Virus record (IMG/VR): IMGVR_UViG_2671180770_000020
Location: 1 to 37,086 of that record
Length of the DNA stretch: 37,086 bases
Reading direction: 5' to 3' (one strand)
Source: a virus
Lineage: Duplodnaviria; Heunggongvirae; Uroviricota; Caudoviricetes
The notes below the pieces were generated by a model, which saw only the letters and a list, made by a program, of their open reading frames with translations, did no database searches and was not told the DNA's origin. Below, piece after piece: positions 3,127-33,848 of the stretch (position 1 is the first letter of the stretch; every line of letters starts with the position of its first letter). Made by a program: the position numbers and the translations under genes.

Positions 3127-3279
3127 TCAGCCCTCCCATATCTCGTTATCGTTGGCCACATCGCGAGCTTCTTTGCTGACGAAAGCCCACTTAATGCCTT
3201 CCTGTAAGGTGCGGAACTTCCAGCTCATGAATCCGCATGCAGTAACGCAGTACCAACCGTTGATGATTTTCCACTGCAT
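3127..3279 (-). CDS. Small hypothetical protein (50 aa), first ORF of the leftward early operon
   Basis: Hand-translated ORF MQWKIINGWYCVTACGF...NEIWEG, stop TGA at 3127-3129 two nt before the next start; not in the ORF track because it is under 60 aa. Confidence 0.3.
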   Translation of the reverse strand: MQWKIINGWYCVTACGFMSWKFRTLQEGIKWAFVSKEARDVANDNEIWEG

Positions 3280-3298
3280 AACTTGTTACCTCGGTCTG

Positions 3299-3375
3299 TT
3301 ACCGTTGAGGTAATAATTATGCTTATTTGGTTTGGTGTCAATAGATATGAGTTAAAAAAATTACCCGTAAGGTAA
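3299..3375. promoter_or_regulatory. Left operator/promoter region: two perfect TTACC-N5-GGTAA palindromes (3299-3313, 3361-3375) bracketing a putative leftward promoter
   Basis: Minus-strand TTGACA at 3336-3341 with a TAATTA/AATTAT -10 candidate at about 3313-3319; one palindrome overlaps the -10, the other lies upstream of the -35. Confidence 0.55.
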
Positions 3376-3386
3376 TCTATCTGGCA

Positions 3387-3410
3387 ATAAAAAAGCCGCC
3401 ATGAGGCGGC
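3387..3410 (-). terminator. Intrinsic terminator after the repressor gene
   Basis: Minus-strand hairpin GCCGCC-loop-GGCGGC followed by a T-run (A-run 3387-3394 on the plus strand), 23 nt past the repressor stop. Confidence 0.6.
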
Positions 3411-3432
3411 TTACTTACTGAAAAATATAGTT

Positions 3433-4017
3433 TTATTGTTTGCTTTTTTCGTTCTGGTTGATGACAAATTCAATGTAACTTTCGATCTTTGCTTTCTCGG
3501 TTTCGGGTAACAATGCGTAGCGTGAGCGGTCATAGTTGATAGTCGCAGGGTCGTGCGGGTGAATCAGTAGTTCATATCCGTGACGCCCGAATGCGGATGC
3601 AACATTCTCCAGGGTGGAAATGGAAACGCTGACCTCATTGTTTAACAGGCGACTGATTGTCACCTGGGCGACGCCGGATGCGCGGTGAAGTTTTCCCTGC
3701 GTTGAAAGGTCGCGGCTTTCGCTCATCCAGCGTTCCAGGTTGTGAGCCGCCAGCTGACCAATGTCGCTTGGGCCGACAGGCTGAAAACCTTCCTGAGAAA
3801 GCGAGCGATCGATATCAAGCCAGTTACGGGGTTTATTGGCGGCAGCTTCAATTTTTCGCGCAACCTGGTCGCCGATAACCTTCTTGCCAAGAGCCCAGCG
3901 GTTTACCAGATTTGCCTGAGTTCCAAGTTTTTCTGCCATCCGCGTCTGAACACCATTGAATTCACGGTCGATCAAGTCGTTGAGATTTTGCCTGCGGACG
4001 TCCTGGATACTTTTCAT
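3433..4017 (-). CDS. Prophage repressor (CI-like) with HTH_XRE domain(s) and no S24/LexA-type peptidase domain
   Basis: 194 aa; N-terminal Cro/CI-type HTH (...QTRMAEKLGTQANLVNRWALGKK...); a second HTH-like segment (...VTISRLLNNEVSVSISTLENVASAFG...); no Ala-Gly cleavage site or Ser/Lys peptidase motif seen; divergent from the cro-like gene. Confidence 0.7.
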   Translation of the reverse strand: MKSIQDVRRQNLNDLIDREFNGVQTRMAEKLGTQANLVNRWALGKKVIGDQVARKIEAAANKPRNWLDIDRSLSQEGFQPVGPSDIGQLAAHNLERWMSESRDLSTQGKLHRASGVAQVTISRLLNNEVSVSISTLENVASAFGRHGYELLIHPHDPATINYDRSRYALLPETEKAKIESYIEFVINQNEKSKQ

Positions 4018-4072
4018 TTTCTGGAAAATCGCCTCATATATGAATCAGTAGATGATTCAATTTAAAGCAATA

Positions 4073-4135
4073 TTACCCAACAGGTAAATGCACCCCACAG
4101 GTAACTATCCTTGATTTTTGTTACCTTATGGGTGA
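4073..4135. promoter_or_regulatory. Right operator/promoter region: TTACC-N5-GGTAA at 4073-4087, GGTAA half-site at 4100-4104, near-palindrome TTACCttatgGGTgA at 4121-4135
   Basis: Putative rightward promoter TTGATT (4111-4116), 17-nt spacer, GAATAT (4134-4139); the 4121-4135 site sits between -35 and -10. Confidence 0.55.
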
Positions 4136-4171
4136 ATATTTATTATCTGAAATAAATATCAGGCAATAGCT

Positions 4172-4768: not shown

Positions 4769-5584
4769 ATGAGCAGACATGCAACAGATTGGGCCTGGGA
4801 GACAGATCCAGGTAGCTCATCATTAAAGCTCATACTGCTCTCGATGGCTGACAGAGCCGATGAATATAACCTCTGCTACCCCAGCATAGAACGCCTCGTT
4901 AAAGACACTTGCCTGAATAAAAAAACCGTGCAGGCCGGGCTTATATCGCTCATGAAAATGGGGCTTATTTCAGATACCGGAGAGAGAAAGGGAGCGACAA
5001 AAAGAGTGCGGGTTTTCTCTCTTAATATAACCAAAAACGGGAACATTAAAGGCAACCGGGAGGGGGGCAATGAACCCGAAAACGGTAATGTTACCGAAAA
5101 CGGGAATATACCCAAAAACGGGATGTTGAATGATCCCAAAAACGGGATGTTGAATGATCCCAAAAACGGGATCCAGAACCAGTCATATAACCAGTCATTT
5201 AACCAAGAGAGGGAGAGCAGGACAAAAAGCGGGGATTCTGTGCCTCATGACCCCGGAGCAAACAACGCCGTGATGAATAACTTTGTTCCTCCTGGTGGGC
5301 CAGGGCAATTAGGCAAATTTGTCATGCATGAACAATGGCAGCCATCAGATGACTTTCTTCGGAAAAGCTCATTGCAGGGGATCTACCTGGACAGTCTGCC
5401 AACGGCACAGGAACTTGCAGAGTTCAGAATTTACTGGATGGCTGAGGGTAAGGCATACCATCAGGCACAGTGGGAGCAGAAGCTGGCAAGGCGGCTGCAG
5501 ATTAGCAGACAGAAGCAATCAACATTACCTGATAACAACGTTCCGCACTGGAACAGCCCTGAAGCATGGGAGGATTTCTTGTGA
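4769..5584 (+). CDS. Replication initiator (lambda O-like; iterons lie inside the gene)
   Basis: 271 aa, GGAG before ATG 4769; coding sequence contains the iteron array and is followed by the P-like gene, as in lambdoid ori/O/P modules. Confidence 0.6.
   Translation: MSRHATDWAWETDPGSSSLKLILLSMADRADEYNLCYPSIERLVKDTCLNKKTVQAGLISLMKMGLISDTGERKGATKRVRVFSLNITKNGNIKGNREGGNEPENGNVTENGNIPKNGMLNDPKNGMLNDPKNGIQNQSYNQSFNQERESRTKSGDSVPHDPGANNAVMNNFVPPGGPGQLGKFVMHEQWQPSDDFLRKSSLQGIYLDSLPTAQELAEFRIYWMAEGKAYHQAQWEQKLARRLQISRQKQSTLPDNNVPHWNSPEAWEDFL
5031..5170. repeat. Iteron array (putative origin of replication)
   Basis: Six copies of CC(C/G)AAAACGG(G/T) at about 5031, 5076, 5094, 5111, 5135, 5159; the last three have 24-bp periodicity (cccaaaaacgggatgttgaatgat x2), followed by an A/T-richer stretch. 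Confidence 0.6.
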
Positions 5585-9464: not shown

Positions 9465-10060
9465 TGATGCCTGCTGAACCTAAAACCTATAAACGCAAAT
9501 CAACGCAATTTAAGCCGCTCACAGCAATGCAGGAGGCTTATTGCCAGTCATACATCAAAACGCCTGAAAACCAGACTCAGGCAGCGATTAACGCAGGATT
9601 CTCCCCAAATACAGCGGCAGTTAAAGCCAGTGTCATGATGCGCGATGAACGCATTCAAAAACGGATTGCCGAGTTGATGGAGGAGCGCAACAAACGAATG
9701 CGCGTCAGTGCTGATTACGTTCTCATGCGCCTGGTGGAGATCGACCAGATGGACGTGATCGACATCCTCAACGACGATGGGAGCCTTAAGCCAATCCGCG
9801 AGTGGCCGAAAATCTGGCGCACTACGCTTAGCGGCTTTGATCTGTCATCGACCATCATGAACATGAACGAGGATTCGATAGAGACAATCCTCAAAAAAAT
9901 TAAATGGCCTGACAAGGTGAAGAACCTCGAACTGATTGGTAAGCACGTCGACGTCAACGCGTTCAAAGAACGCCTGGATGTTAATGTGAATGTGACAATT
10001 GCTGATCGCATAGCGGCAGCCAGGAAGCGACTCAAAGAACGTCAGGATGGTAATCAGTGA
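9464..10060 (+). CDS. Terminase small subunit
   Basis: Directly upstream of and overlapping (GTGA) the large terminase; start set at ATG 9464 because the TTG start at 9386 in the ORF track would read through the terminator hairpin. Confidence 0.6.
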   Translation: MMPAEPKTYKRKSTQFKPLTAMQEAYCQSYIKTPENQTQAAINAGFSPNTAAVKASVMMRDERIQKRIAELMEERNKRMRVSADYVLMRLVEIDQMDVIDILNDDGSLKPIREWPKIWRTTLSGFDLSSTIMNMNEDSIETILKKIKWPDKVKNLELIGKHVDVNAFKERLDVNVNVTIADRIAAARKRLKERQDGNQ

Positions 10061-11526
10061 CAGATACAGCGTTATCTCCTGAAGAGCAGTTGATCGAGGA
10101 TATTGCAGGGTTCACTCACGATCCGCTTGGCTATGCCCTCTATGCGTTCCCGTGGGGGGAAGAGGGGACTGAACTGGCACATGCCACCGGCCCACGTCAG
10201 TGGCAAGCCGATGCGTTCCGAGAGATACGTGATCACCTGCAGAATCCAGAGACGCGCTATCAGCCGCTTATGCTGGCACGCGCTTCGGGGCACGGTATTG
10301 GTAAATCAGCATTCATCTCAATGCTGATCAACTGGGGCATGTCCACTTGCGAGGATTGTAAGGTCGTGGTGACCGCCAACACCGACAACCAGCTACGAAC
10401 GAAGACCTGGCCGGAAATTATCAAGTGGTCGAACCTTGCTATCACGAAAGACTGGTTTACCTGTACCGCTACCGCGATGTACAGCAATGACCCTGGGCAC
10501 GACAAACGGTGGCGGGCTGACGCAATACCCTGGTCTGAGCACAACACTGAGGCATTCGCCGGACTACACAACGAGCGCAAACGCATCATCGTGGTATTCG
10601 ATGAAGCGTCGAACATTGCGGATCTGGTGTGGGAAGTTGCTGAGGGTGCGCTTACGGACGAAGACACTGAGATTATCTGGGTGGCGTTCGGAAACCCTAC
10701 ACGTAATACCGGGCGTTTTCGCGAATGTTTCCGCAAATACAAACACCGCTGGAAAACTGCGCAGATTGACAGCCGGACGGTGGAAGGTACTAACAAACAG
10801 CAGTTGCAGAAATGGGTTGATGACTACGGGGAAGACAGCGACTTCGTTAAAATCCGTGTGCGCGGCATATTCCCTGATGCATCTGAATTGCAGTTTATCC
10901 CTACCGGTCTTACTGATGAGGCAATGAAACGGGTGGTAACCGCTGCGCAGGTGGCACATGCTCCGGTGATAATCGGTGTTGACCCGGCATATTCAGGCGT
11001 TGATGACGCGGTGATATACCTGCGGCAGGGGTTGCATAGTAAGGTGCTATGGACTGGCAACAAGACCACTGACGATCTGATTATGGCGAAGCGTATCGCT
11101 GACTTTGAAGACCAGTACCAGGCTGACGCAGTGTTCATCGACTTCGGTTACGGAACTGGTCTGAAGTCAATCGGTGACGGCTGGGGTCGTACATGGCAAC
11201 TTGTTCCGTTCGGTGGCGTGTCTACTGACCCGCAGATGCTCAACAAGCGTGGGGAGATGTTCAACTCATGTAAGACATGGCTGAGGCTGGGCGGGATGCT
11301 GGATGACCAGGAAACAGCGGACGATCTGTCTGCGGCAGAGTACAAAGTTCGCGTGGACGGTAAAATCGTTATCGAACCGAAGGAAGATATCAAAGAACGA
11401 CTTGGGCGTTCACCTGGTAAAGGCGATGCGCTACTGCTGACGTTTGCGTTCCCGGTAGCCAAGAAAACTAATGACCCACGGCAGCAGCAGGGCAGGGCTA
11501 TAACAGACTATGACCCATTTGAATGA
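10057..11526 (+). CDS. Terminase large subunit
   Basis: 489 aa; Walker A-like ...ARASGHGIGKSAF...; acidic nuclease-type C-terminal half; GTG start overlapping the small-subunit stop. Confidence 0.8.
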   Translation: MTDTALSPEEQLIEDIAGFTHDPLGYALYAFPWGEEGTELAHATGPRQWQADAFREIRDHLQNPETRYQPLMLARASGHGIGKSAFISMLINWGMSTCEDCKVVVTANTDNQLRTKTWPEIIKWSNLAITKDWFTCTATAMYSNDPGHDKRWRADAIPWSEHNTEAFAGLHNERKRIIVVFDEASNIADLVWEVAEGALTDEDTEIIWVAFGNPTRNTGRFRECFRKYKHRWKTAQIDSRTVEGTNKQQLQKWVDDYGEDSDFVKIRVRGIFPDASELQFIPTGLTDEAMKRVVTAAQVAHAPVIIGVDPAYSGVDDAVIYLRQGLHSKVLWTGNKTTDDLIMAKRIADFEDQYQADAVFIDFGYGTGLKSIGDGWGRTWQLVPFGGVSTDPQMLNKRGEMFNSCKTWLRLGGMLDDQETADDLSAAEYKVRVDGKIVIEPKEDIKERLGRSPGKGDALLLTFAFPVAKKTNDPRQQQGRAITDYDPFE

Positions 11527-11529
11527 TTT

Positions 11530-12378
11530 TTACTTTTGTGTTTTTGATTTTCTTTGATAGGTGGAATTTAAATCACCATTTATATTTACTAGAGGATTAT
11601 TCAATAATGTACTGATTTCTGGATTGTTAATTCCAGTAACGCCAAATTTCTTTACGGACTCATTAAGGTCTTGTAATGATTTTAGACCTACAAACCCATT
11701 AGCAATTGTATTATTTGTTGCCAAAGGAATGTTTTCCTTATAGGACTCATATTCGTTTTTTAAATTTTTGTGAGCTTTTTCTAGATTTTCTAGTTTAGAT
11801 GTTGTTTCATCAATAACCTTAGATAATTCTAAAATACGAGCTTGTGCTGCGCGCAGTTCTGTCTCCCTCTCTTTCAATTCAGATGTGAGTTGTCCCATTC
11901 TGTCTTTTGAAAGAATTATTTCCTCTTTCATGTCTTGAATGTTTTTTTCAGCGCCTGTTTTTACTTTTTCGTAAGTAATGTCTTTTTTAGCCAGCAATCT
12001 CTGTAGCCGTGTTTCACGTTGTATTTTTCTTGCCTTCCGGTGGTTTTCGATTGAGTCATTATTATCAAGAGGTTTTGCTTGCCATACGTTAATGATATTG
12101 TTTACCCATGGTAATAGGCAGCAGATAGTAATTACAGATAAGCATGGATAAAACATAACAGTTTTCCATGTGCTGTTATCTGAGATGTATGAAATTTTAT
12201 CTATTATATTTGATTTGCTAAAAAACAGATAAAGAAGTGATTTCCAGTTGAAGGCGCACCAGGACATAACAAAAGCACCAAGCACAGGGTTTTTGGCTCT
12301 ATGCACGGCAGTGTTTGCAGTAGATAAAAACAGCTCTTTGAACGATTCAAACATACTAATTACCTTAAAGTTTTTCAT
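11530..12378 (-). CDS. Moron: membrane-anchored coiled-coil protein of unknown function
   Basis: 282 aa from ATG 12378 (MKNFKVI...); markedly AT-rich relative to neighbours; opposite strand to the flanking late genes; two hydrophobic segments then a long Lys/Glu-rich coiled coil; own terminator and palindrome upstream. Confidence 0.55.
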   Translation of the reverse strand: MKNFKVISMFESFKELFLSTANTAVHRAKNPVLGAFVMSWCAFNWKSLLYLFFSKSNIIDKISYISDNSTWKTVMFYPCLSVITICCLLPWVNNIINVWQAKPLDNNDSIENHRKARKIQRETRLQRLLAKKDITYEKVKTGAEKNIQDMKEEIILSKDRMGQLTSELKERETELRAAQARILELSKVIDETTSKLENLEKAHKNLKNEYESYKENIPLATNNTIANGFVGLKSLQDLNESVKKFGVTGINNPEISTLLNNPLVNINGDLNSTYQRKSKTQK

Positions 12379-12382
12379 GATT

Positions 12383-12397
12383 ATACCTTTAAGGTAA
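12383..12397. promoter_or_regulatory. Near-perfect palindrome copy (aTACCtttaaGGTAA) abutting the moron start
   Basis: A minus-strand TATAAT overlaps the site just upstream of ATG 12378. Confidence 0.4.
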
Positions 12398-12410
12398 TTT
12401 GTGGTCATCA

Positions 12411-12436
12411 GGCAAAAAAATACCCGGCGAACCGGG
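12411..12436 (-). terminator. Intrinsic terminator between the tRNA and the moron
   Basis: Minus strand CCCGG-ttcg-CCGGG followed by TATTTTTTTG. Confidence 0.5.
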
Positions 12437-12515
12437 CGAACTGGAAGCAATGAGTTATGCCTTCCGTGGCTGTACTGGTTTACAGCATGAAGTCATCGCA
12501 ATGGCGTCCTGCTGT

Positions 12516-12557
12516 AAAAAGGGCGGTGATAGTCCTTCAAGGGAAACTATCACCGCC
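12516..12557 (-). terminator. Intrinsic terminator immediately downstream of the tRNA
   Basis: Minus strand 12-bp stem GGCGGTGATAGT / ACTATCACCGCC followed by CTTTTTT. Confidence 0.65.
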
Positions 12558-12600
12558 AAGCACCTGGAACTTCTGGCATCACGGTCCTTAGGCGTGATTC

Positions 12601-12677
12601 TGGCGTGGCATGCAGGATTCGAACCTGCGACCAACCGCTTAGAAGGCGGTTGCTCTGTCCAACTGAGCTAATGCCAC
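12601..12677 (-). tRNA. tRNA-Arg (anticodon UCU), 77 nt with encoded CCA
   Basis: Hand-folded cloverleaf: acceptor GUGGCAU/AUGCCAC, D-arm GCUC-AGUUGGACA-GAGC, anticodon arm ACCGC-CUUCUAA-GCGGU, variable loop UGGUC, T-arm GCAGG-UUCGAAU-CCUGC, discriminator G, CCA. Confidence 0.9.
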
Positions 12678-13000
12678 AACACTGAGAGCACTTAGCCTGT
12701 TAAGTGCGCCACACTTTGTCGCGGCTCCATAAATGCTCTCATCGTTGTACCCTCGTCTCTTCCGAGGCGTCACACCGAATCGCCGGGATGGTGAATCCCC
12801 GTGCGCGGAATAAAACCGCTCGACTTGCACATTCCGGCTACCTGGTTCGTTTGCCCGAGCAAGGGAGGGTGCCCCTTAAACGTATCCAGACCGCTATCGG
12901 CGCATGTGCCATACGCCGTACTGCTCAAAATAAAAGCTCACTCCACCTGTTCAATTTAACGATAAGCCAGTCAGGTTAATAACCGGAATGAACACTTTAC

Positions 13001-13015
13001 TTACCTGAAAGGTAA
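13001..13015. promoter_or_regulatory. Perfect palindrome TTACCtgaaaGGTAA upstream of the head gene cluster
   Basis: Lies in the non-coding interval between the tRNA and the first head-module gene (13106). Confidence 0.45.
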
Positions 13016-13105
13016 TAATTCGTGCGTTAAATGTCAACTATCTACGATAAATAAATCATATGTGGTTAAATTGGTAATAATTTAATTGCGTACGGAGTCA
13101 TTGAT

Positions 13106-13326: not shown

Positions 13327-15006
13327 ATGGCGGAAACAACTAAAGAGCGATTGAACAAACAGTTCGCACAACTTGAAAGCGAGCGTCAGTCGTTCGAGCC
13401 GCACTGGCGCGAGTTGAGTGATTACATCAACCCGCGTGGTTCCCGCTTTCTGACTTCTGAGGTCAACCGTAACGATCGACGCAATACACGCATTATTGAT
13501 TCGACCGGGACTATGGCGGCGCGCACTCTCGCCAGCGGCATGATGTCAGGCATCACAAGCCCCGCGCGTCCGTGGTTTCGCCTGGCTACGCCAGATCCTG
13601 AAATGATGGATTATGGCCCTGTTAAGTTGTGGCTTGAGGCAGTGCAGAACCGCATGAACGATATGTTCAATAAGTCGAATCTCTATCAGTCGCTGCCGCA
13701 GTTATACGGAAGCCTCGGCACATACAGCACCGGTGCAATGGCGGTGATGGAGGATGACGAGGACATCATTCGTACAATGCCATTCCCGATAGGAAGTTAC
13801 TACCTGGCTAACTCACCTCGTGGCAGTGTGGACACCTGTTTTCGCAAGTTCTCTATGACTGTTCGTCAGCTTGTTCAGGAGTTCGGGCTAAATAACGTCA
13901 GCGAATCCGTAAAAAGCATGTGGGAAAGCGGCACCTACGAGAAGTGGATTGAAGTGATGCATTCGGTTTACCCGAACATTGACCGCGATACATCGAAGCT
14001 GGATAGCAAGAACAAGCCATTCAAATCGGTTTATTACGAGGTTGGTGGCGATAACGACAGGTTGTTGCGTGAGTCCGGATTCGATGAGTTTCCAATTATG
14101 GCTCCGCGCTGGGAAGTTAACGGCGAAGATGTTTATGGATCATCATGCCCGGGTATGCTGGCGCTTGGACCTGTTAAGGCATTGCAGCTTCTCCAGAAGC
14201 GCAAGTCGCAGTTGATTGATAAAGCCACCAATCCGCCGATGGTTGCTCCGACTTCCCTCAAGAATCAGCGCGCCTCCCTTCTTCCTGGCGACATCACGTA
14301 TATCGATCAGATTACTGGTCAGGATGGTTTCAGGCCTGCTTATCTGGTTAACCCCAGTACAGCAGATTTGGTGGCAGACATTCAGGACACTCGTCAAATC
14401 ATTAACAGCGCCTACTTTGTCGATCTGTTCATGATGTTGCAGAACATCAATACCCGCTCGATGCCTGTGGAAGCGGTGATCGAAATGAAAGAAGAAAAAC
14501 TTCTGATGTTGGGGCCGGTTCTGGAGCGTCTGAACGACGAATGTCTTAATCCTCTCATTGACCGCGCTTTCTCGATGATGGTGCGTAAAAACATGCTGCC
14601 GCCACCGCCTGACGCGATGGAAGGTATGCCCCTGAAGGTCGAATACATTTCCGTCATGGCTCAGGCGCAGAAGTCTATCGGCCTGTCCAGTCTGGCGTCT
14701 ACGGTCAACTTCATTGGTCAACTTGCGCAAGCGAAACCAGAAGCTCTCGACAAACTCAACGTTGATCAGGCGATCGATGCATTCGCTGATATGTCCGGAG
14801 TGTCTCCAACCGTCATTGTTCCGCAGGAACAGGTTGAGCAGGCTCGCCAGCAACGGGCACAGCAACAACAGCAGCAACAAATGATGGCGATGGGGATGGC
14901 GGCGGCACAGGGGGCCAAGACGCTAAGCGAAGCTAAAACTTCGGATCCGAGTGTGTTGTCAGCTATGGCGAATGCAGTTAGTGGTCAGGGTGGGCAATCA
15001 CAATGA
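13327..15006 (+). CDS. Portal protein (putative)
   Basis: 559 aa, first large gene after terminase; Gln-rich C-terminal tail. Assignment by size and position. Confidence 0.6.
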   Translation: MAETTKERLNKQFAQLESERQSFEPHWRELSDYINPRGSRFLTSEVNRNDRRNTRIIDSTGTMAARTLASGMMSGITSPARPWFRLATPDPEMMDYGPVKLWLEAVQNRMNDMFNKSNLYQSLPQLYGSLGTYSTGAMAVMEDDEDIIRTMPFPIGSYYLANSPRGSVDTCFRKFSMTVRQLVQEFGLNNVSESVKSMWESGTYEKWIEVMHSVYPNIDRDTSKLDSKNKPFKSVYYEVGGDNDRLLRESGFDEFPIMAPRWEVNGEDVYGSSCPGMLALGPVKALQLLQKRKSQLIDKATNPPMVAPTSLKNQRASLLPGDITYIDQITGQDGFRPAYLVNPSTADLVADIQDTRQIINSAYFVDLFMMLQNINTRSMPVEAVIEMKEEKLLMLGPVLERLNDECLNPLIDRAFSMMVRKNMLPPPPDAMEGMPLKVEYISVMAQAQKSIGLSSLASTVNFIGQLAQAKPEALDKLNVDQAIDAFADMSGVSPTVIVPQEQVEQARQQRAQQQQQQQMMAMGMAAAQGAKTLSEAKTSDPSVLSAMANAVSGQGGQSQ

Positions 15007-15299
15007 CAGATTACGAAGACGATCAACTGAAAGAAGAAAACGCCCGTAAGCAACGTGACATGGCGCAGCGTGAAATTGATGACATTCGCTTTGTCATGAG
15101 CAGTGAACAGGGGCGTCGCGTTGTCTGGTCGGTGCTGGAGAAAGGCCGTGTGTTTTCCGCTATCTCACCGATGGACGCTATGGCAATGGCATTTAATGAG
15201 GGGCAACGCAATCTGGCGCTGGAACTGTTTCAGCGCGTTATGGCGCATTGCCCTGAACAGTATTTGAAGATGGCCAAAGAGGCCAGTGAACAGGAGTGA
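15003..15299 (+). CDS. Hypothetical head-module protein
   Basis: 98-aa ORF, ATGA overlap with the portal stop. Confidence 0.45.
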   Translation: MTDYEDDQLKEENARKQRDMAQREIDDIRFVMSSEQGRRVVWSVLEKGRVFSAISPMDAMAMAFNEGQRNLALELFQRVMAHCPEQYLKMAKEASEQE

Positions 15300-15301
15300 T
15301 C

Positions 15302-15997
15302 ATGAATTTATTTGAGCGTTTGCTGTATCGCCGTCTTTGCAATGAGCAACCAGTCGATGGTGGAGCAGCTCCGGCTGCGTCAGAACCGTCAGCGCCTGCA
15401 GGTGATAACCCTGCTCCAGTTGGTGATCCATCACAACAGGAAGGTGATAAGCCACAACCTGTTGCTGATGGCGATAAACCTGCTGATGACAAAAAGTCTG
15501 AAAACGATAAGCAGGATGAAAAAAAGGACGGCGATAAACCAGAGGGTGCGCCTGAGAAGTACGAGTTTCAGGCTGCCGAAGGCGTAGAGCTGGATACAGA
15601 AGCGTTGAAGGAATTCGAGCCGGTGGCGCGAGAACTTAACCTGACCAACGAGCAAGCGCAAAAGCTGGTTGATGCTTATCCGAAGATTCTGGCAGGTGTG
15701 CAGCAGCGCCAGGCAGAAGCCTGGCAGAAAACAACCGAGCAGTGGGCTGCTGATGTAAAAGCTGACAAAGAAATCGGTGGCGACAAGTTGATTTCTAACC
15801 TTAGCGCCGCACAGCGTGCGCTTGACCAGTTCGGGACACCTGAACTCAAAGAATATCTGAACACCACCGGGCTGGGTAATCACCCTGATCTGGTCAAAAC
15901 GTTCGTGAAAATCGGAAAGGCGATGTCTGAAGATGGCATGGTCACCGGTGGTAATGAAGGCCAGCGTAGTGCGGCCGAAGTGCTCTATGGCAAATAA
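15302..15997 (+). CDS. Scaffolding protein (putative)
   Basis: 231 aa, acidic and Pro/Asp/Lys-rich, directly upstream of the major capsid gene; start at ATG 15302 (GGAG 5 nt upstream). Confidence 0.5.
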   Translation: MNLFERLLYRRLCNEQPVDGGAAPAASEPSAPAGDNPAPVGDPSQQEGDKPQPVADGDKPADDKKSENDKQDEKKDGDKPEGAPEKYEFQAAEGVELDTEALKEFEPVARELNLTNEQAQKLVDAYPKILAGVQQRQAEAWQKTTEQWAADVKADKEIGGDKLISNLSAAQRALDQFGTPELKEYLNTTGLGNHPDLVKTFVKIGKAMSEDGMVTGGNEGQRSAAEVLYGK

Positions 15998-16011
15998 GAG
16001 AGGAAATGACA

Positions 16012-16998
16012 ATGGCTGTTAAAGGCTTAACTGCGCTAACGCTGGCTGACTGGGGTAAGCGCGTCGATCCAAACGGGAAAGTCGATAAGATTATCGAGCT
16101 TCTCGGTCAAACTAACCCGATCCTTCAGGATATGCCTTTTGTCGAAGGGAACCTTCCTACCGGACACCGAACCACCATTCGTTCTGGTTTACCTTCAGCT
16201 ACCTGGCGTTTGCTGAACTATGGCGTACAGCCAAGCAAATCAACCACAGTACAGGTCACCGATTCCGTTGGCATGCTGGAAACCTATGCTGAAGTCGATA
16301 AGTCACTGGCTGATCTGAACGGTAATACCGCCGAATTCCGCCTGTCTGAAGACCGCGCATTTATTGAAGCGATGAATCAGCAGATGGCGCAGACGCTGTT
16401 TTATGGTGATTCCAGCGTTAACCCCCAGCAGTTTATGGGGCTGTCCTCCCGCTATTCCAGCCTGTCTGCGGGTAATGCTCAGAACATCATCGATGCTGGT
16501 GGCACGGGTACAGACAACACCTCAATCTGGTTAGTAGTGTGGGGGGAAAATACCGTGCATGGCATCTTCCCGAAAGGGAAGAAGGCTGGCATTCAGATGG
16601 AAGATAAAGGCCAGGTGACACTGGAAGATGCTAATGGCGGCAAGTACGAAGGCTATCGCACCCATTACAAATGGGACAACGGACTTGCTCTGCGTGACTG
16701 GCGTTATGTTGTTCGCATTGCAAACATCGATGTCAGCAATCTTTCAGAACCTTCCTCTGCCGCAAATATTGCGAAGTTGATGGTTAAAGCACTGCATCGC
16801 ATTCCAAACCGTGGCATGGGCCGCCCGGTGTTCTACATGAACCGCACTGTAGGCCAGGCTCTTGATCTGCAATCTCTGGAGAAAACATCTCTGGCGATCA
16901 GCGTAAAAGAGACAGAAGGCGAGTGGTGGACTTCATTCCGTGGTGTACCAATCCGTGAAACTGATGCGCTTCTGGAAACAGAAGCCCGCGTGGTGTAA
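16012..16998 (+). CDS. Major capsid protein (putative)
   Basis: 328 aa following the scaffold-like gene and followed by a hairpin; assigned by position and size. Confidence 0.55.
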   Translation: MAVKGLTALTLADWGKRVDPNGKVDKIIELLGQTNPILQDMPFVEGNLPTGHRTTIRSGLPSATWRLLNYGVQPSKSTTVQVTDSVGMLETYAEVDKSLADLNGNTAEFRLSEDRAFIEAMNQQMAQTLFYGDSSVNPQQFMGLSSRYSSLSAGNAQNIIDAGGTGTDNTSIWLVVWGENTVHGIFPKGKKAGIQMEDKGQVTLEDANGGKYEGYRTHYKWDNGLALRDWRYVVRIANIDVSNLSEPSSAANIAKLMVKALHRIPNRGMGRPVFYMNRTVGQALDLQSLEKTSLAISVKETEGEWWTSFRGVPIRETDALLETEARVV

Positions 16999-17049
16999 CG
17001 CCTGTTATTAACCTGTGGGTCGTAACAGACCCACTAATGGAGAAAGAAG

Positions 17050-17487
17050 ATGATCACCGACAAACTGTTGATGTTCTCCGAAGCACAGGCGGTAACTGAT
17101 ACCGCGGCTTCTACTGACGTAATCGATCTCGGCCCAATTGATGGAAACCGTCGCGATATCGGCGTGGGTTACCCGCTTGAGTTTTGGGCGCTGGTTAACG
17201 AAGCCGCCACGGCAAGTGGTGAGGCAACTGTAAACATCCAGTTGCAGACGAGTGAGAATAACAGCTCTTGGACCACTATTTATGATAGTGGCGCACTGGC
17301 AAAGGCCACCCTGACAGCAGGTAAACGAGTTGTTTCTGCAAAGGTGCCTGCCGGTGTTCAGCGATATTTGCGTGTTAACTACTCCGTCGCAACTGGCCCA
17401 CTAACGGCCGGCAAATTCACTGCGGGTATCAGTCTGGATGTTGATGCCAATACACCGTACCCGATCCGCTCAAAAATAACTGGTTAA
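17050..17487 (+). CDS. Hypothetical virion protein (possible capsid decoration protein)
   Basis: 145 aa, Thr/Ala/Gly-rich, directly after the capsid gene. Confidence 0.4.
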   Translation: MITDKLLMFSEAQAVTDTAASTDVIDLGPIDGNRRDIGVGYPLEFWALVNEAATASGEATVNIQLQTSENNSSWTTIYDSGALAKATLTAGKRVVSAKVPAGVQRYLRVNYSVATGPLTAGKFTAGISLDVDANTPYPIRSKITG

Positions 17488-17497
17488 GGTGATATCG

Positions 17498-17833
17498 ATG
17501 TCTGGTGATAAACCAAGATACCGCGTTCTGCGCCTCTCTCATATCCATAACACACTGTGGCCGGAGGGAGCAGAAATCGAATACGAAGGTGAGCCTGGTA
17601 GCGCACTGGAACCTGTTAACGATGCAGCCAGACAGGCAAAAGCAAAGGTAGCAGGAAAGGTGACTATGGCAGCAACCAGCACCAAAATCATCAACGATGT
17701 GTCAGATGATGGTGAACTGGATAAGCTCCGTGAAGAGTACGAATTGCTCTTTAACGAGAAGCCACACCATAACGCCAAAGCCGAAACGCTCCGCGAGAAG
17801 ATCGCAGATAAGCGTAAAGAACTGGGCGTGTAA
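17498..17833 (+). CDS. Hypothetical head-module protein
   Basis: 111 aa from ATG 17498 (AAGGTGA 5 nt upstream). Confidence 0.4.
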   Translation: MSGDKPRYRVLRLSHIHNTLWPEGAEIEYEGEPGSALEPVNDAARQAKAKVAGKVTMAATSTKIINDVSDDGELDKLREEYELLFNEKPHHNAKAETLREKIADKRKELGV

Positions 17834-17850
17834 GCCTCGCGAATCAGACA

Positions 17851-17871
17851 AGGGGCTTCGGCCCCTTTATT
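17851..17871 (+). terminator. Intrinsic terminator after the capsid gene block
   Basis: AGGGGC-ttcg-GCCCCT followed by TTATT. Confidence 0.6.
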
Positions 17872-17883
17872 GCAGGAGTGTAT

Positions 17884-18207
17884 ATGGAACTCGTAAACCT
17901 CAAAACCGGCACTGACAGCTACCAGGATGAGAGCGGAGAAACCAGAACTCGCGATGAATACCCGTGGGGGCTGTGCATCACTCTTAATAATGACACATTG
18001 AATAAGCTGAAGGCACAACCTCAGGGCGTCGGAACAGAAGTGATGATAACTGCAAAGGCTGTTATTCGAGGCCTGTCTGCCAGAGAAACTGACGATGGTG
18101 TTAATCGCAGCGCCGATCTGCAGATCACTGATATGGCGATCGCTCCTGTTTCCGGGGATGTAGAAAAATCAGCGGCTGAAACTCTGTACGGTAACGGAGG
18201 TGAGTGA
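17884..18207 (+). CDS. Hypothetical virion protein
   Basis: 107 aa from ATG 17884 (GGAG upstream). Confidence 0.4.
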   Translation: MELVNLKTGTDSYQDESGETRTRDEYPWGLCITLNNDTLNKLKAQPQGVGTEVMITAKAVIRGLSARETDDGVNRSADLQITDMAIAPVSGDVEKSAAETLYGNGGE

Positions 18208-30432: not shown

Positions 30433-31083
30433 TCAGAAGAACCCTGCCTTGTCGTTGATGTATTCCGCGTGAGTCTGGATATCACGCAGGCATTTGCTCA
30501 CACCGACGATGTAGCAGAACATGGTGGTCAGCTCCGCCGCCGCGCCCGATACATCGTGCCCGTCTTCCTGTAACTGGTTCAGCAGATTCATCAGCAGTGA
30601 GTTCTCCGTCAGGCCGAGAACACCAGATGGGGAATGAATCAGACTGCGGTAGCCGGGCTTCAGCGGTGCACTGTATTCTTTTTTGTCTTCCAGCTTGATC
30701 GCCTCCATAATGGCTGGCATGAAGCCTGACAAGACCTTCTCCACTTTTGTTTCTTGTTGTCTTAAACGTTTCTCGCATTCAATGAAGTAGCGTCGCACCT
30801 GGCGACCTTTTTCGTTACGCTCGACCATCGCCAGCTCTTTGGCTGTATCGAGGGTGAGGTGGTAGTCTTTTGCAGGACGGCCTCTGCCTATTTTTTCCCG
30901 AACTTGGGAAATAATCATAAAGTCTTGATTTTCAACGAAACCATATTCAGCAATTCGTTCGACAATCCACGAAGCAAATCGCTTACCCACATCGAGGAAA
31001 GTGTGTAAATCACGGGCATTAACGAGAAGAGCGGTTTCGTTGGATATAGTGCCGTTGAATACGGGGATGAGTTGAGCGTTCAT
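30433..31083 (-). CDS. Antirepressor (AntA-type N-terminal domain)
   Basis: 216 aa; N-terminal ...LIPVFNGT...NARDLHTFLDVGKRFASWIVERIAEYGFVENQDFMI... matches the remembered AntA/AntB antirepressor domain; GGAG upstream of ATG 31083. Confidence 0.7.
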   Translation of the reverse strand: MNAQLIPVFNGTISNETALLVNARDLHTFLDVGKRFASWIVERIAEYGFVENQDFMIISQVREKIGRGRPAKDYHLTLDTAKELAMVERNEKGRQVRRYFIECEKRLRQQETKVEKVLSGFMPAIMEAIKLEDKKEYSAPLKPGYRSLIHSPSGVLGLTENSLLMNLLNQLQEDGHDVSGAAAELTTMFCYIVGVSKCLRDIQTHAEYINDKAGFF

Positions 31084-31240
31084 TATGGCGTCTCCACTTA
31101 GCGAATTACATCACCACCGCTGAGACCAATCAGATGGTGGTGAACTGAACGGAGTTGGTCTTACCGGCCTAAGTGGTACCGGCGTCCTTTCGGACCCCCA
31201 TTCAGCCCACCATAATTCTGGCATGACTGTGCTATACGCA

Positions 31241-31263
31241 TAAAAAAACCACGTCTGGCGTGG
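31241..31263 (-). terminator. Intrinsic terminator between the small Ant-like gene and the antirepressor gene
   Basis: Minus strand CCACG-ccaga-CGTGG followed by TTTTTTTAT. Confidence 0.45.
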
Positions 31264-31354
31264 TATGCGCCACTTAGTAATCCGGGAGACCAATCCCGGC
31301 ACTGGATTTTGCCAGTGCCCGATTACTATGGCACAAGAGGAGTGCGATGTAAAT

Positions 31355-31853: not shown

Positions 31854-33848
31854 ATGACGGTCTCAACCGAAGTTGACCACAACGAATATACAGGTAACGG
31901 TGTTACAACTACGTTCCCTTATACCTTTAGGATTTTCCAGAAATCTGATCTGGTGGTGCAGGTGATTGACCTTGACGAGAATATCACTGTGCTGGCTCTT
32001 GATACTGATTACGCAGTCACTGGTGCGGGAGGCTATAGAGGCGGTAATATAATACTGTCGAAGGCATTGGCCAACGGTTATCAGATCTCTATATCACGAG
32101 AGCTCCCGGTTACTCAGGAAACAGATCTGCGTAATCAGGGTAAATTCTTTGCAGAGGTGCATGAGGATGCGTTTGATAAGCTAACGATGCTGATTCAACA
32201 ATGTCGTAGCTTGTTTCGTCTTGCACTTTGCAAGCCATCAAGTATTGCAAACTGGTACGACGCTTTAAATAACAGGATTAGAAATCTTAAAGATCCAGAA
32301 AGCCCTCAGGATGCAGTAACTTTAAGTTATCTTGAAGGGTATATAGAAGGTGGTGATAGTACTTTGCGTCCAGATATTACAAGAACTGGAGCTGTAGGGA
32401 ATAATATACAGCAAGCCATAAACTTATCTATAGCCGGTCAAACTGTAATTACGATGAAAGATGATGAAATTGTATCTTCATTGTTAAATGAATATGGTGT
32501 TGAAATTGAGCAACGCAGGGGGCGTGTATTTAATACAGAAGGTGTTCAACTAACAACGTATTCTGACCCTCGTTCCCGTTTTGTAACTGGTGACCAATAT
32601 CTTAATTATGTTATTAGCAAGATGATAAAAGCAGATGGCGTGGATAAATCACAGAAAACATATATTTTGTGGTCTGGTGACTCCACGATTGTTGGTGTTA
32701 ACTCTGAATTATGGCCACCAGCAACTATTGCTGATTTTTATGCAAAAAGGTATGGAATTATTGATGTAAAAAATACATCGTTAGGTCATTCAGGTAAAAC
32801 TCTATACGAATGGGGTAATTGGTATATTGATCAGGAATGGTCTGTTTTTTCTGCTGCTGATTTGATTGTTTTACGCTGGGGAATTAACGATCCATATTAT
32901 GGTTATACATTGGATCAAGTAAAAGACGCATTAGATAGAGGCCTTTCCAAGTTACGAAATAACAAATCAGTTTCCCAGCAATCAATTATTATCATGTCCC
33001 CAAACTCAACATCAGACACACCAAACGGACGTGATGAAAAATGGTATGAACAGTTAACAGCCGTACTTAGAGCCAAAGCAAAACAATATAAGTGTATGTT
33101 TTTTGATACTTACGGTATGTGGCAGGATTCGCGAGGATCTGCTGGTAACTGGCTTGACGACCCTTATGGCGATGGCAGGGGAATACACCCAAACTCAACA
33201 TTTAGCGCACAGATACATAAATTATTATTTGAATATATTTATGGACCGTGTGCTGTTATAAATGGGAGTAGCAACCTTTTTTCTAACAATGGTTCTTCCA
33301 TACAATTCATCAATAGCTCATATCCGCCAAATACTTTTCACATGGGGACTTCATGGTGGAGAACAAACCCTGATGATGCTTCTTGGCCTCTTGACGGTGT
33401 TATTCAGGTTGATAGATTTGTTGACGGAATAGTAGTACAAAAAAATTATGGTTATTCTTCAGATAATGCTCGCGTTTGCTTAATGAGGATTGGAAGGATT
33501 AGTGAGAATACATGGAGTACATGGCGAGGTAATCAGTATGATATGAGTGGCATATTGCAAAATGGTTGGTCTGTAGGTGAGGCAAGAAGTGGAACATATC
33601 AGAAATCAGCCGAGGGCGTTGTTACTTTATCTGCTGTTTTAACAGGTGGAAATACATCTGTTGGCACAGTTATTATGGTATTGCCAGAAGGGTTTAGACC
33701 AAAGAATGATATTTCTTATATTCCATCAGGTACTGATTCATCGGTTGCCCTCATTAATATACTTTCAAACGGTAAAGTTACAATTCAGAGCTATCCGTCA
33801 GGAACAGTTCTTGTAATTAATACGACATTCCCTTCATTAGTTAATTAG
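31854..33848 (+). CDS. Tail fiber/tailspike with C-terminal SGNH/GDSL-type esterase domain
   Basis: 664 aa; N-terminal virion-anchoring-like segment (MTVSTEVDHNEYTGNGVTTTFPYTF...); GDS(L)-like motif ...ILWSGDSTIVG... and downstream ...DGRGIHPN... (Asp/His catalytic-type motif); C-terminal two-thirds is clearly more AT-rich than the N-terminus. Confidence 0.7.
   Translation: MTVSTEVDHNEYTGNGVTTTFPYTFRIFQKSDLVVQVIDLDENITVLALDTDYAVTGAGGYRGGNIILSKALANGYQISISRELPVTQETDLRNQGKFFAEVHEDAFDKLTMLIQQCRSLFRLALCKPSSIANWYDALNNRIRNLKDPESPQDAVTLSYLEGYIEGGDSTLRPDITRTGAVGNNIQQAINLSIAGQTVITMKDDEIVSSLLNEYGVEIEQRRGRVFNTEGVQLTTYSDPRSRFVTGDQYLNYVISKMIKADGVDKSQKTYILWSGDSTIVGVNSELWPPATIADFYAKRYGIIDVKNTSLGHSGKTLYEWGNWYIDQEWSVFSAADLIVLRWGINDPYYGYTLDQVKDALDRGLSKLRNNKSVSQQSIIIMSPNSTSDTPNGRDEKWYEQLTAVLRAKAKQYKCMFFDTYGMWQDSRGSAGNWLDDPYGDGRGIHPNSTFSAQIHKLLFEYIYGPCAVINGSSNLFSNNGSSIQFINSSYPPNTFHMGTSWWRTNPDDASWPLDGVIQVDRFVDGIVVQKNYGYSSDNARVCLMRIGRISENTWSTWRGNQYDMSGILQNGWSVGEARSGTYQKSAEGVVTLSAVLTGGNTSVGTVIMVLPEGFRPKNDISYIPSGTDSSVALINILSNGKVTIQSYPSGTVLVINTTFPSLVN

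Follow-up and report, generated by a model that had tools for sequence, protein, structure and literature searches.

A phage tRNA-Arg(UCU) gene and its structured leader RNA within a conserved non-coding unit of an epsilon15-like prophage

Is the tRNA gene that lies between the terminase and portal genes of an epsilon15-like prophage an independent gene for decoding rare arginine codons, or one part of a larger unit? The question is raised by the DNA analyzed here, positions 1 to 37,086 of IMG/VR virus record IMGVR_UViG_2671180770_000020 (the window, 37,086 nucleotides (nt) in full), which is an epsilon15/phiV10-like prophage of the Uetakevirus group of epsilon15-like podophages. A first-pass annotation, made before any database search, had described on the minus strand a complete tRNA-Arg(UCU) cloverleaf followed by a hairpin with a stem of 12 base pairs (bp), and both are present at 12516-12677, far beyond chance. 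Our reading, to which we assign a probability of about 0.6, is that this is a working phage tRNA-Arg(UCU) gene that forms a module of an early transcription unit rather than an independent gene, and that it relieves a limit on the supply of AGA and AGG decoding.

The tRNA-Arg(UCU) gene

ARAGORN detected a single tRNA in the whole window, a minus-strand tRNA-Arg (anticodon tct) that spans 12601-12677 (77 nt, CCA encoded), and the Rfam tRNA model RF00005 gave a full-length match to 12604-12677 on the same strand, scoring 73.3 bits where the gathering threshold is 29 (expectation value (E) 2e-14, posterior probabilities near 1). The sequence reads GUGGCAU UA GCUC AGUUGGACA GAGC A ACCGC CUUCUAA GCGGU UGGUC GCAGG UUCGAAU CCUGC AUGCCAC G CCA; since the gene ends in G-CCA, the CCA is encoded. 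These results bear out the cloverleaf that had been described, with a 7-bp acceptor stem (GUGGCAU/AUGCCAC), a 4-bp D stem, and anticodon and T stems of 5 bp each, and the conserved positions U8, A14, G18-G19, and the GUUCGAAUC T-loop are all in place. The anticodon UCU occupies positions 34-36 in a 7-nt loop, CUUCUAA, with U33 and A37.

The identity elements of E. coli arginyl-tRNA synthetase (ArgRS) are A20, C35, and U36. The D-loop of the phage tRNA supplies A20, and C35 and U36 are also present; because of these three positions, we would expect the mature tRNA to be charged by host ArgRS and to decode AGA and, less well, AGG. C35 and U36 were retained in 12 of 12 phage-encoded tRNA-Arg(UCU) variants collected. 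The 37 tRNA-Arg(UCU) genes gathered from related loci comprise 13 distinct sequences, and in the family of this tRNA the 3' strand of the acceptor stem is AUGCCAC, AUGCCGC, or AUGCUGC, with pairing held by G-U wobble. Across the variants from E. coli, Salmonella, and Klebsiella phages, the cloverleaf and the identity positions are maintained and the acceptor changes are wobble-compatible only, which indicates selection on a working tRNA. We conclude that the tRNA is real, phage-specific, and almost certainly functional.

The first-pass annotation had likened the D-arm to that of enterobacterial argU, set the acceptor stem apart from it, and taken the gene for a phage-borne variant rather than a host copy. 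Direct comparison agreed on each count. The anticodon, the 7-nt anticodon loop, and the T-arm are identical to those of argU, the D-stem and D-loop are nearly so, and A20, C35, U36, G73, and the encoded CCA are common to both. Differences fall in the acceptor stem (GCGCCCU/AGGGCGC in argU), in the anticodon stem, at position 20a, and in the variable loop, and argU has a close promoter of its own, whereas the phage tRNA has a 320-nt leader. Identity to the phage tRNA is 77/77 for phiV10, 73/77 for Salmonella phage SPN1S, 72/77 for a Klebsiella phage, and 64/77 for E. coli K-12 argU. Shiga-toxin phage 933W likewise carries rare-codon arginine tRNAs, argO (UCU) and argN, in a regulated phage transcript between terminators; these are 57/77 and 51/77 identical, however, and belong to a three-tRNA cluster in the late operon downstream of Q/pR', without the leader element described below.

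Over the 501 bases that surround the tRNA, identity is 98-99.8% to prophages of about 500 of 5,426 complete E. coli genomes, and phages phiV10, TL-2011b, O157 typing phages 9 and 10, phiv142-3, and ZX5 (Uetakevirus) are equally near. In phiV10, typing phages 9 and 10, phiv142-3, and TL-2011b, the tRNA-Arg stands in a block of 486-501 nt, 98-99% identical, at the same terminase-portal position; in phiV10, there is essentially no difference in the tRNA, and the downstream cargo gene is a different one. Records KP869107, KP869108, and MN187550 annotate a tRNA-Arg, as PGAP does for E. coli genomes, and one tRNA has been reported for phage ZX5 (PMC9782041), so the tRNA-Arg(UCU) is an already known object of a common kind. 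The phiV10 RefSeq record (NC_007804.2) has no tRNA feature, and a hypothetical coding sequence, PhiV10p04 (3229-3480), is drawn over the tRNA on the opposite strand. The equivalent plus-strand open reading frames (ORFs) of the window, 12399-12671 and 12704-12979, look spurious.

A non-coding unit around the tRNA

The tRNA lies within a conserved non-coding unit of ~600 nt that consists, in order, of a promoter/operator region, a structured leader, the tRNA, a hairpin, a terminator-like hairpin (T1), a conserved spacer, and a second terminator (T2). The first-pass annotation had credited the tRNA with its own terminator; a hairpin with a U-tract is indeed present, but the tRNA is one module of this unit and not a self-contained gene. 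The 190-215 nt 3' of the tRNA are conserved among E. coli, Salmonella, and Klebsiella relatives. Right after the CCA stands a trailer hairpin, AUCACG...CGUGAU (12577-12598, minus strand), nearly invariant in these relatives and weak by itself (-5.9 kcal/mol). T1 (12516-12557, minus strand), a 14-bp hairpin plus CUUUUU, contains the 12-bp stem of the original description as a perfect core, GGCGGUGAUAGU / ACUAUCACCGCC, extendable to 14 pairs over 12557-12522 and then followed by CUUUUUAC. Its minimum free energy is -23.1 kcal/mol (z = -6.6 against shuffled sequences), and it is preserved through compensatory changes in the Salmonella and Klebsiella relatives, with the caveat that its U-tract is short, at 4-5 U.

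T2 (GCCCGG-UUCG-CCGGGU then AUUUUUUU, 12437-12414, minus strand) lies 115 nt further on and is the more canonical of the two, with 6 pairs and 7 U; its variant GCCCAC/GUGGGC is compensatory. T1 and T2 each combine a G+C-rich hairpin with a U-tract, as intrinsic terminators do. The spacer between them (12440-12521, minus strand) forms two hairpins both in the single-sequence fold and in an RNAalifold consensus of nine diverse sequences, among which its pairs are invariant or compensated. The 5' strand of the first spacer hairpin is the T1 U-tract itself, UUUACAGCA, which pairs with UGCUGUAAA, and this hairpin is invariant. The conservation of the spacer equals that of the tRNA, and in read-through transcripts the T1 U-tract would be sequestered in the spacer hairpin. 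The Shine-Dalgarno sequence and ATG of a cargo gene lie within ~10 nt of T2 in phiV10 and many relatives, with no detectable promoter, which points to transcription by read-through only; the cargo ORF of the window, unlike that of phiV10, has a promoter-like site of its own.

At the other end of the unit, a candidate sigma-70 promoter was read from the sequence at 13008-13036 on the minus strand, with a -35 hexamer TTGACA (13036-13031), a 17-nt spacer, and a -10 hexamer TACCTT (13013-13008). Its predicted transcription start is near 13001, ~320 nt ahead of the tRNA. The -10 is overlapped by an operator-like palindrome, TTACCTGAAAGGTAA (13001-13015). When at most one mismatch is allowed, the window contains 14 copies of the motif TTACC-N5-GGTAA, where 0.66 would be expected (positions 3299, 3361, 4073, 4121, 4458, 6404, 6466, 9432, 9450, 12383, 13001, 30353, 31355, and 31735). 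Copies stand pairwise on either side of the helix-turn-helix repressor gene at 3433-4017, and the remainder are mostly in or beside intergenic regions; SPN1S-type relatives have the same palindrome just 5' of the leader. We infer that the palindrome is the operator of the prophage repressor. If it is, the tRNA unit would be an early, derepression-dependent transcript, like pL and the ban operon of phage P1. The dispersed palindromes are likely a set of operators and recall the way in which the C1 operators are scattered in P1.

Expression of the unit may be pictured as follows. Transcription would start at the promoter at 13036-13008, whose -10 lies under the probable repressor operator, and would be silent in the lysogen and turned on at induction or infection. 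The transcript would open with the structured leader of ~320 nt, which includes a conserved pseudoknotted element. Maturation by RNase P is the standard tRNA pathway of E. coli, and by this pathway RNase P would cleave the 5' end of the tRNA and the 3' end would be trimmed to the encoded CCA. Most transcripts would stop at T1 or at the stronger T2, and read-through would supply the cargo gene.

The locus is on the minus strand and is flanked by two plus-strand genes, those of the large terminase (10057-11526) and the portal protein (13327-15006). The cargo ORF (11530-12378, minus strand) encodes 282 amino acids, is AT-rich (G+C content 0.34), and belongs to PHROG 4780; the content of this slot varies among relatives, and phiV10 has an Sf6 gp66-like gene there instead. 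A Pfam search with the 282-residue product gave no match, and PHROG and Pfam searches with the cargo proteins and the product of the first pL gene of phage mEp460 returned only "unknown function." A copy of the palindrome with one mismatch (12383-12397) overlaps the promoter-like site of the cargo ORF (ATGACC-17-TATAAT, 12380-12408, minus strand). The cargo had been called a moron, but its expression in a lysogen is doubtful because the palindrome at the promoters of the tRNA unit and of the cargo also flanks the repressor gene. This promoter-like site leaves almost no leader ahead of the first ATG, and an internal ATG at 12354, after AAGG, may be the true start.

The leader RNA element

The 225 bases 5' of the tRNA match sequences well beyond the epsilon15-like phages: lambdoid phages (mEp460, cdtI, 2H10, Ayreon, Stx2c, some Stx2a, and mEp390), P1/P7-like phages and plasmids, phages of Klebsiella and Enterobacter, and one entry deposited as a phage of Stenotrophomonas. 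Their core is a pseudoknotted RNA element of ~175 nt at 12747-12921 on the minus strand, supported by nhmmer (E 7e-40) and by covariation. We searched for the element with an invariant 19-mer in viral contigs and with a second motif in species-representative genomes, followed by nhmmer confirmation. The search yielded 152 loci with 109 unique variants, and the confirmed genome matches were all in Enterobacterales, except for one short contig binned as Bacillota.

The structure was modeled by inspection, an RNAalifold consensus, and a scan for complementary column pairs, and the model was tested on an alignment of 38 sequences. It contains helix P1; PK1, a proposed loop pairing; P2/P2a; a variable P3; P4, with the loop UUCACCA; the pseudoknot PK2; and the hairpin P5, CCUCG-GAAGAGA-CGAGG. 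In the alignment, 93% of the cells were paired, and 16 of the 35 pairs showed changes on both sides. None of 500 shuffles attained any of the five measures, and sliding the 3' partners by 1-3 columns lowered pairing to 29-44%. P1, P2/P2a, P4, P5, and PK2 are well supported; in PK2, the loop UCACC pairs with GGUG and the mEp460 group switches a C-G pair to A-U. PK1 (GCACAU/AUGUGC) was proposed from invariant complementarity, shows no covariation, and is broken in two variants; because it is invariant, the alignment neither supports nor refutes it.

The element matched no known RNA family in the searches made. No Rfam 15 covariance model matched 12680-12925, or the homologous leaders of mEp460 and mEp390, at E<=10, and a search of the window at gathering and permissive thresholds returned tRNA, isrK, and C4 only, with no match of GOLLD, ROOL, riboswitches, or ribozymes to the leader. 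A protein-coding leader was rejected, as the ORFs drawn over it (mEp460 gp37, Tyrion gp54, and phiV10 p04) are inconsistent between phages, the stems carry compensatory substitutions, and the indels are not multiples of three. Searches of the literature, whose coverage was incomplete, turned up no account of the element, so its newness is not proven. These data robustly support the leader element as a structured RNA, currently unclassified.

Between the element and the tRNA lies a second leader domain, a long hairpin, CAAC..GAGAGCAUU / AGUGCUCUC..GUUG (12678-12746, minus strand), that abuts position 1 of the tRNA. A motif search recovered it in at least 34 of 106 unique downstream sequences, and the variant GAGAGCGCAC/GUGCGCUCCC retains the stem. 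What follows the leader differs among phages. All 31 loci with a downstream tRNA are among the 56 epsilon15-like loci, which occupy the terminase-portal interval and of which 25 have none; there is likewise no tRNA downstream at the 74 loci beside a lambdoid repressor gene or the first pL gene of mEp460, the 17 P1-like loci 5' of ban, or the 5 unplaced loci. Any tRNA that does follow the element is a tRNA-Arg(UCU), at a fixed distance. In tRNA-less epsilon15-like and lambdoid phages, the slot is filled by a larger multi-hairpin domain of ~140 nt closed by GUGGUGA/UCACCAC, which opens with the same GUGG as the acceptor stem of the tRNA (mEp460 segment 2717-2860; Tyrion; an Stx2c phage). Because the same slot holds this domain where the tRNA is absent, the tRNA looks like optional cargo in a variable slot. 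A T1-like hairpin (GGCGGUACCAG...CUGGUACCGC + UUUUUACA) and the same following architecture are found in the pL leaders of mEp460 and the Stx2c phage. Downstream of the element at two loci are several repeated small hairpins, CCGGG-AAAGA-CCGG, that resemble P5 and, loosely, the lambda boxB loops.

The element is thus common to three unrelated temperate-phage lineages of Enterobacterales, namely epsilon15-like podophages, lambdoid phages, and P1/P7, and it is usually found at the head of an operon, or close to it, where the operon is under established or apparent repressor control. In mEp460 and mEp390 it begins 35-45 nt past a good predicted pL-like promoter, just beyond the cI terminator, and in these two phages and an Stx2a phage no gene, the N gene included, is annotated in the ~400-780 nt that directly follow the repressor gene. 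In P1/P7, the element lies directly 5' of ban, ~2.4 kb downstream of the operator; in P7, it is flanked by tRNA-Ile and ban and falls within the ban operon, which C1 controls. A second copy of the putL/putR kind was sought, and the element was single-copy per record with one exception. That IMG/VR contig has tandem copies at 3997-4155 and 4805-4960 on the same strand, ~800 nt apart, the second of them diverged.

Roles of the tRNA and of its leader

Codons of the window and of 50 kb of the host chromosome were counted with the same greedy ORF caller (at least 100 amino acids). AGA made up 7.2 per 1000 codons in the phage against 1.9 in the host (3.8-fold; Fisher p 1.6e-10) and AGG 4.55 against 1.57 (2.9-fold; Fisher p 1.7e-5). 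The argU tRNA is of low abundance in the host, and since AGA and AGG are some 3-4 times commoner in phage ORFs, the phage tRNA may relieve the limit that this scarce tRNA sets. The two codons together (AGR) cluster in a replication gene at 4769-5584 (9 codons) and in tail and injection genes; as the first-pass annotation had guessed, they are concentrated in the AT-rich tailspike gene (31854-33848, G+C content 0.39, 16 AGR) and the cargo ORF (6 AGR).

The enrichment that the supply proposal predicted was therefore found, but several observations weigh against our reading. The capsid/head genes at 15003-18018 contain zero AGA and zero AGG codons. Since 25 of the 56 epsilon15-like loci with the leader lack the tRNA, it is dispensable, and AGA in the flanking genes was 4.5 per 1000 at the tRNA-less loci against 2.9, the reverse of what codon co-adaptation would predict, in a comparison of partial loci made without phylogenetic control. 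ATA is 3.2-fold enriched in the phage ORFs, yet the phage carries no matching tRNA. With respect to the early unit, the -35 hexamer is perfect, but the -10 is weak, fitting the consensus at 3 of 6 positions, for which reason a consensus scan did not flag the promoter; and the promoter, the operator-binding protein, the processing sites, and the termination efficiency are all inferred. Codon supply is still the most likely role of the tRNA, and the case for it is weaker than the codon counts by themselves suggest.

The lack of correspondence between tRNA carriage and AGA usage among relatives would also suit a counter-defence function, in which the phage tRNA replaces a host tRNA-Arg(UCU) that has been cleaved or depleted by an anticodon nuclease or another tRNA-targeting defence and its altered stems make it a poorer substrate. 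Neutralization of tRNA-cleaving defences by phage tRNAs is documented for T5, the whole anticodon stem (ACCGC/GCGGU, against ACGAC/GUCGU in argU) as well as the acceptor stem differs from argU, and the likely early, repressor-controlled expression fits. The 7-nt anticodon loop, however, is the same as that of argU, so a nuclease that reads the loop would still cut; no E. coli defence nuclease with specificity for tRNA-Arg(UCU) is known to us, the window contains nothing that ties the tRNA to such a defence, and we hold this explanation to be quite unlikely. The variable slot raises another alternative, that the tRNA serves mainly as an RNase P handle or embedded domain that sets the 3' terminus of the leader RNA or acts as punctuation in the transcript, with decoding incidental. 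Consistent with this, at the epsilon15-like site the leader is constant and the tRNA optional, the domain in the tRNA-less slot shares the initial GUGG, domain 2 abuts tRNA position 1, and the C4 and CI RNAs matured by RNase P provide a precedent. The anticodon, A20, and the full cloverleaf are nevertheless strictly retained in 31 of 31 loci, always as tRNA-Arg(UCU), a conservation that a mere handle would not need, and we judge the alternative unlikely.

Finally, the near-identity of the T-arm and D-arm to argU, which is a known prophage integration site (DLP12), could point to a host gene copy, an attachment-site remnant, or a functionless pseudo-tRNA. The 73-bit score, the preservation of pairing among variants, and the placement of the tRNA between terminase and portal all argue otherwise, and these explanations are very improbable. 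With 64/77 identity to argU and a different acceptor 3' strand, the tRNA is not an attachment-site duplication; moreover, in the closest genome the prophage adjoins guaA, the published attachment site of the Uetakevirus group (PMC9782041), which lies ~13 kb from the tRNA. The host copy and the attachment-site remnant were rejected on these grounds.

As for the leader, the sharing of the element by three lineages with no obvious dedicated protein in common, at early, untranslated, terminator-containing transcripts, suggests a cis-acting RNA that uses host machinery. We tentatively propose, at somewhat less than an even chance, that it represents an undescribed class of phage regulatory RNA that works through host machinery alone, with tRNA-Arg as optional cargo in its variable slot. 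The leading candidate for its function would be a put-like cis modifier of RNA polymerase that lets transcription pass T1/T2, or Rho-sensitive untranslated RNA, and go on into the cargo or early genes. The functional precedent, the put RNA of HK022, is ~70 nt long, with two stem-loops, and occurs twice per phage, as putL and putR (PMC9378689). Like the lambdoid copies of the leader element, this cis-acting antiterminator lies just past pL; the element, in contrast, is ~175 nt long, pseudoknotted, and single-copy, and it does not belong to the put family. Pattern search, nhmmer, and blastn revealed no similarity between the element and the 22-30 kb segment of HK022, a segment not confirmed to hold the put sites. 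In a crude scan over all contexts, intrinsic terminators were found downstream of the element in 47 of 113 cases against 52-58 of 113 in controls. This is no enrichment, and the case for antitermination thus depends chiefly on how the epsilon15-like loci are arranged, with T1 and T2 separating the element from promoterless cargo genes.

Alternatively, the leader would be released as a stable trans-acting RNA whose 3' end is made when RNase P cuts at the tRNA, or it would be a large ornate RNA loosely like GOLLD and ROOL. The latter are large conserved non-coding phage RNAs, and their genes are frequently adjacent to tRNA genes; the leader element differs from them in sequence and in host range (Enterobacterales), and it has no Rfam match. 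The C4 RNA of P1 and the CI RNA of P4 are phage regulatory RNAs matured by RNase P. The C4 RNA of P1/P7 and the CI RNA resemble the leader as structured 5' RNAs of repressor-controlled phage operons with a plausible RNase P-defined end, but their sequence and structure are unrelated, and the C4 model matches the window only at 31133-31217. At 31133-31318 on the minus strand, Rfam identifies C4 antisense RNA (61 bits) and isrK (68 bits) directly 5' of the AntA/Ant antirepressor gene (30433-31083, minus strand), an RNA-controlled antirepressor module like immI of P1 in an epsilon15-like podophage.

By itself the tRNA adds little: phages commonly carry arginine tRNAs for rare codons, and public records already contain this very sequence. 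For annotation, it is better treated as belonging to an early non-coding unit that is probably under repressor control, and what merits a further look is the leader at 12747-12921 (minus strand) rather than the tRNA. This element sits where lambdoid phages put their signals for antitermination. Should it turn out to be an antiterminator that needs no protein, or a stable phage RNA of a new kind, the expression of early and cargo genes in N-less lambdoid and epsilon15-like phages would be accounted for, and the element would also offer a compact regulatory part.

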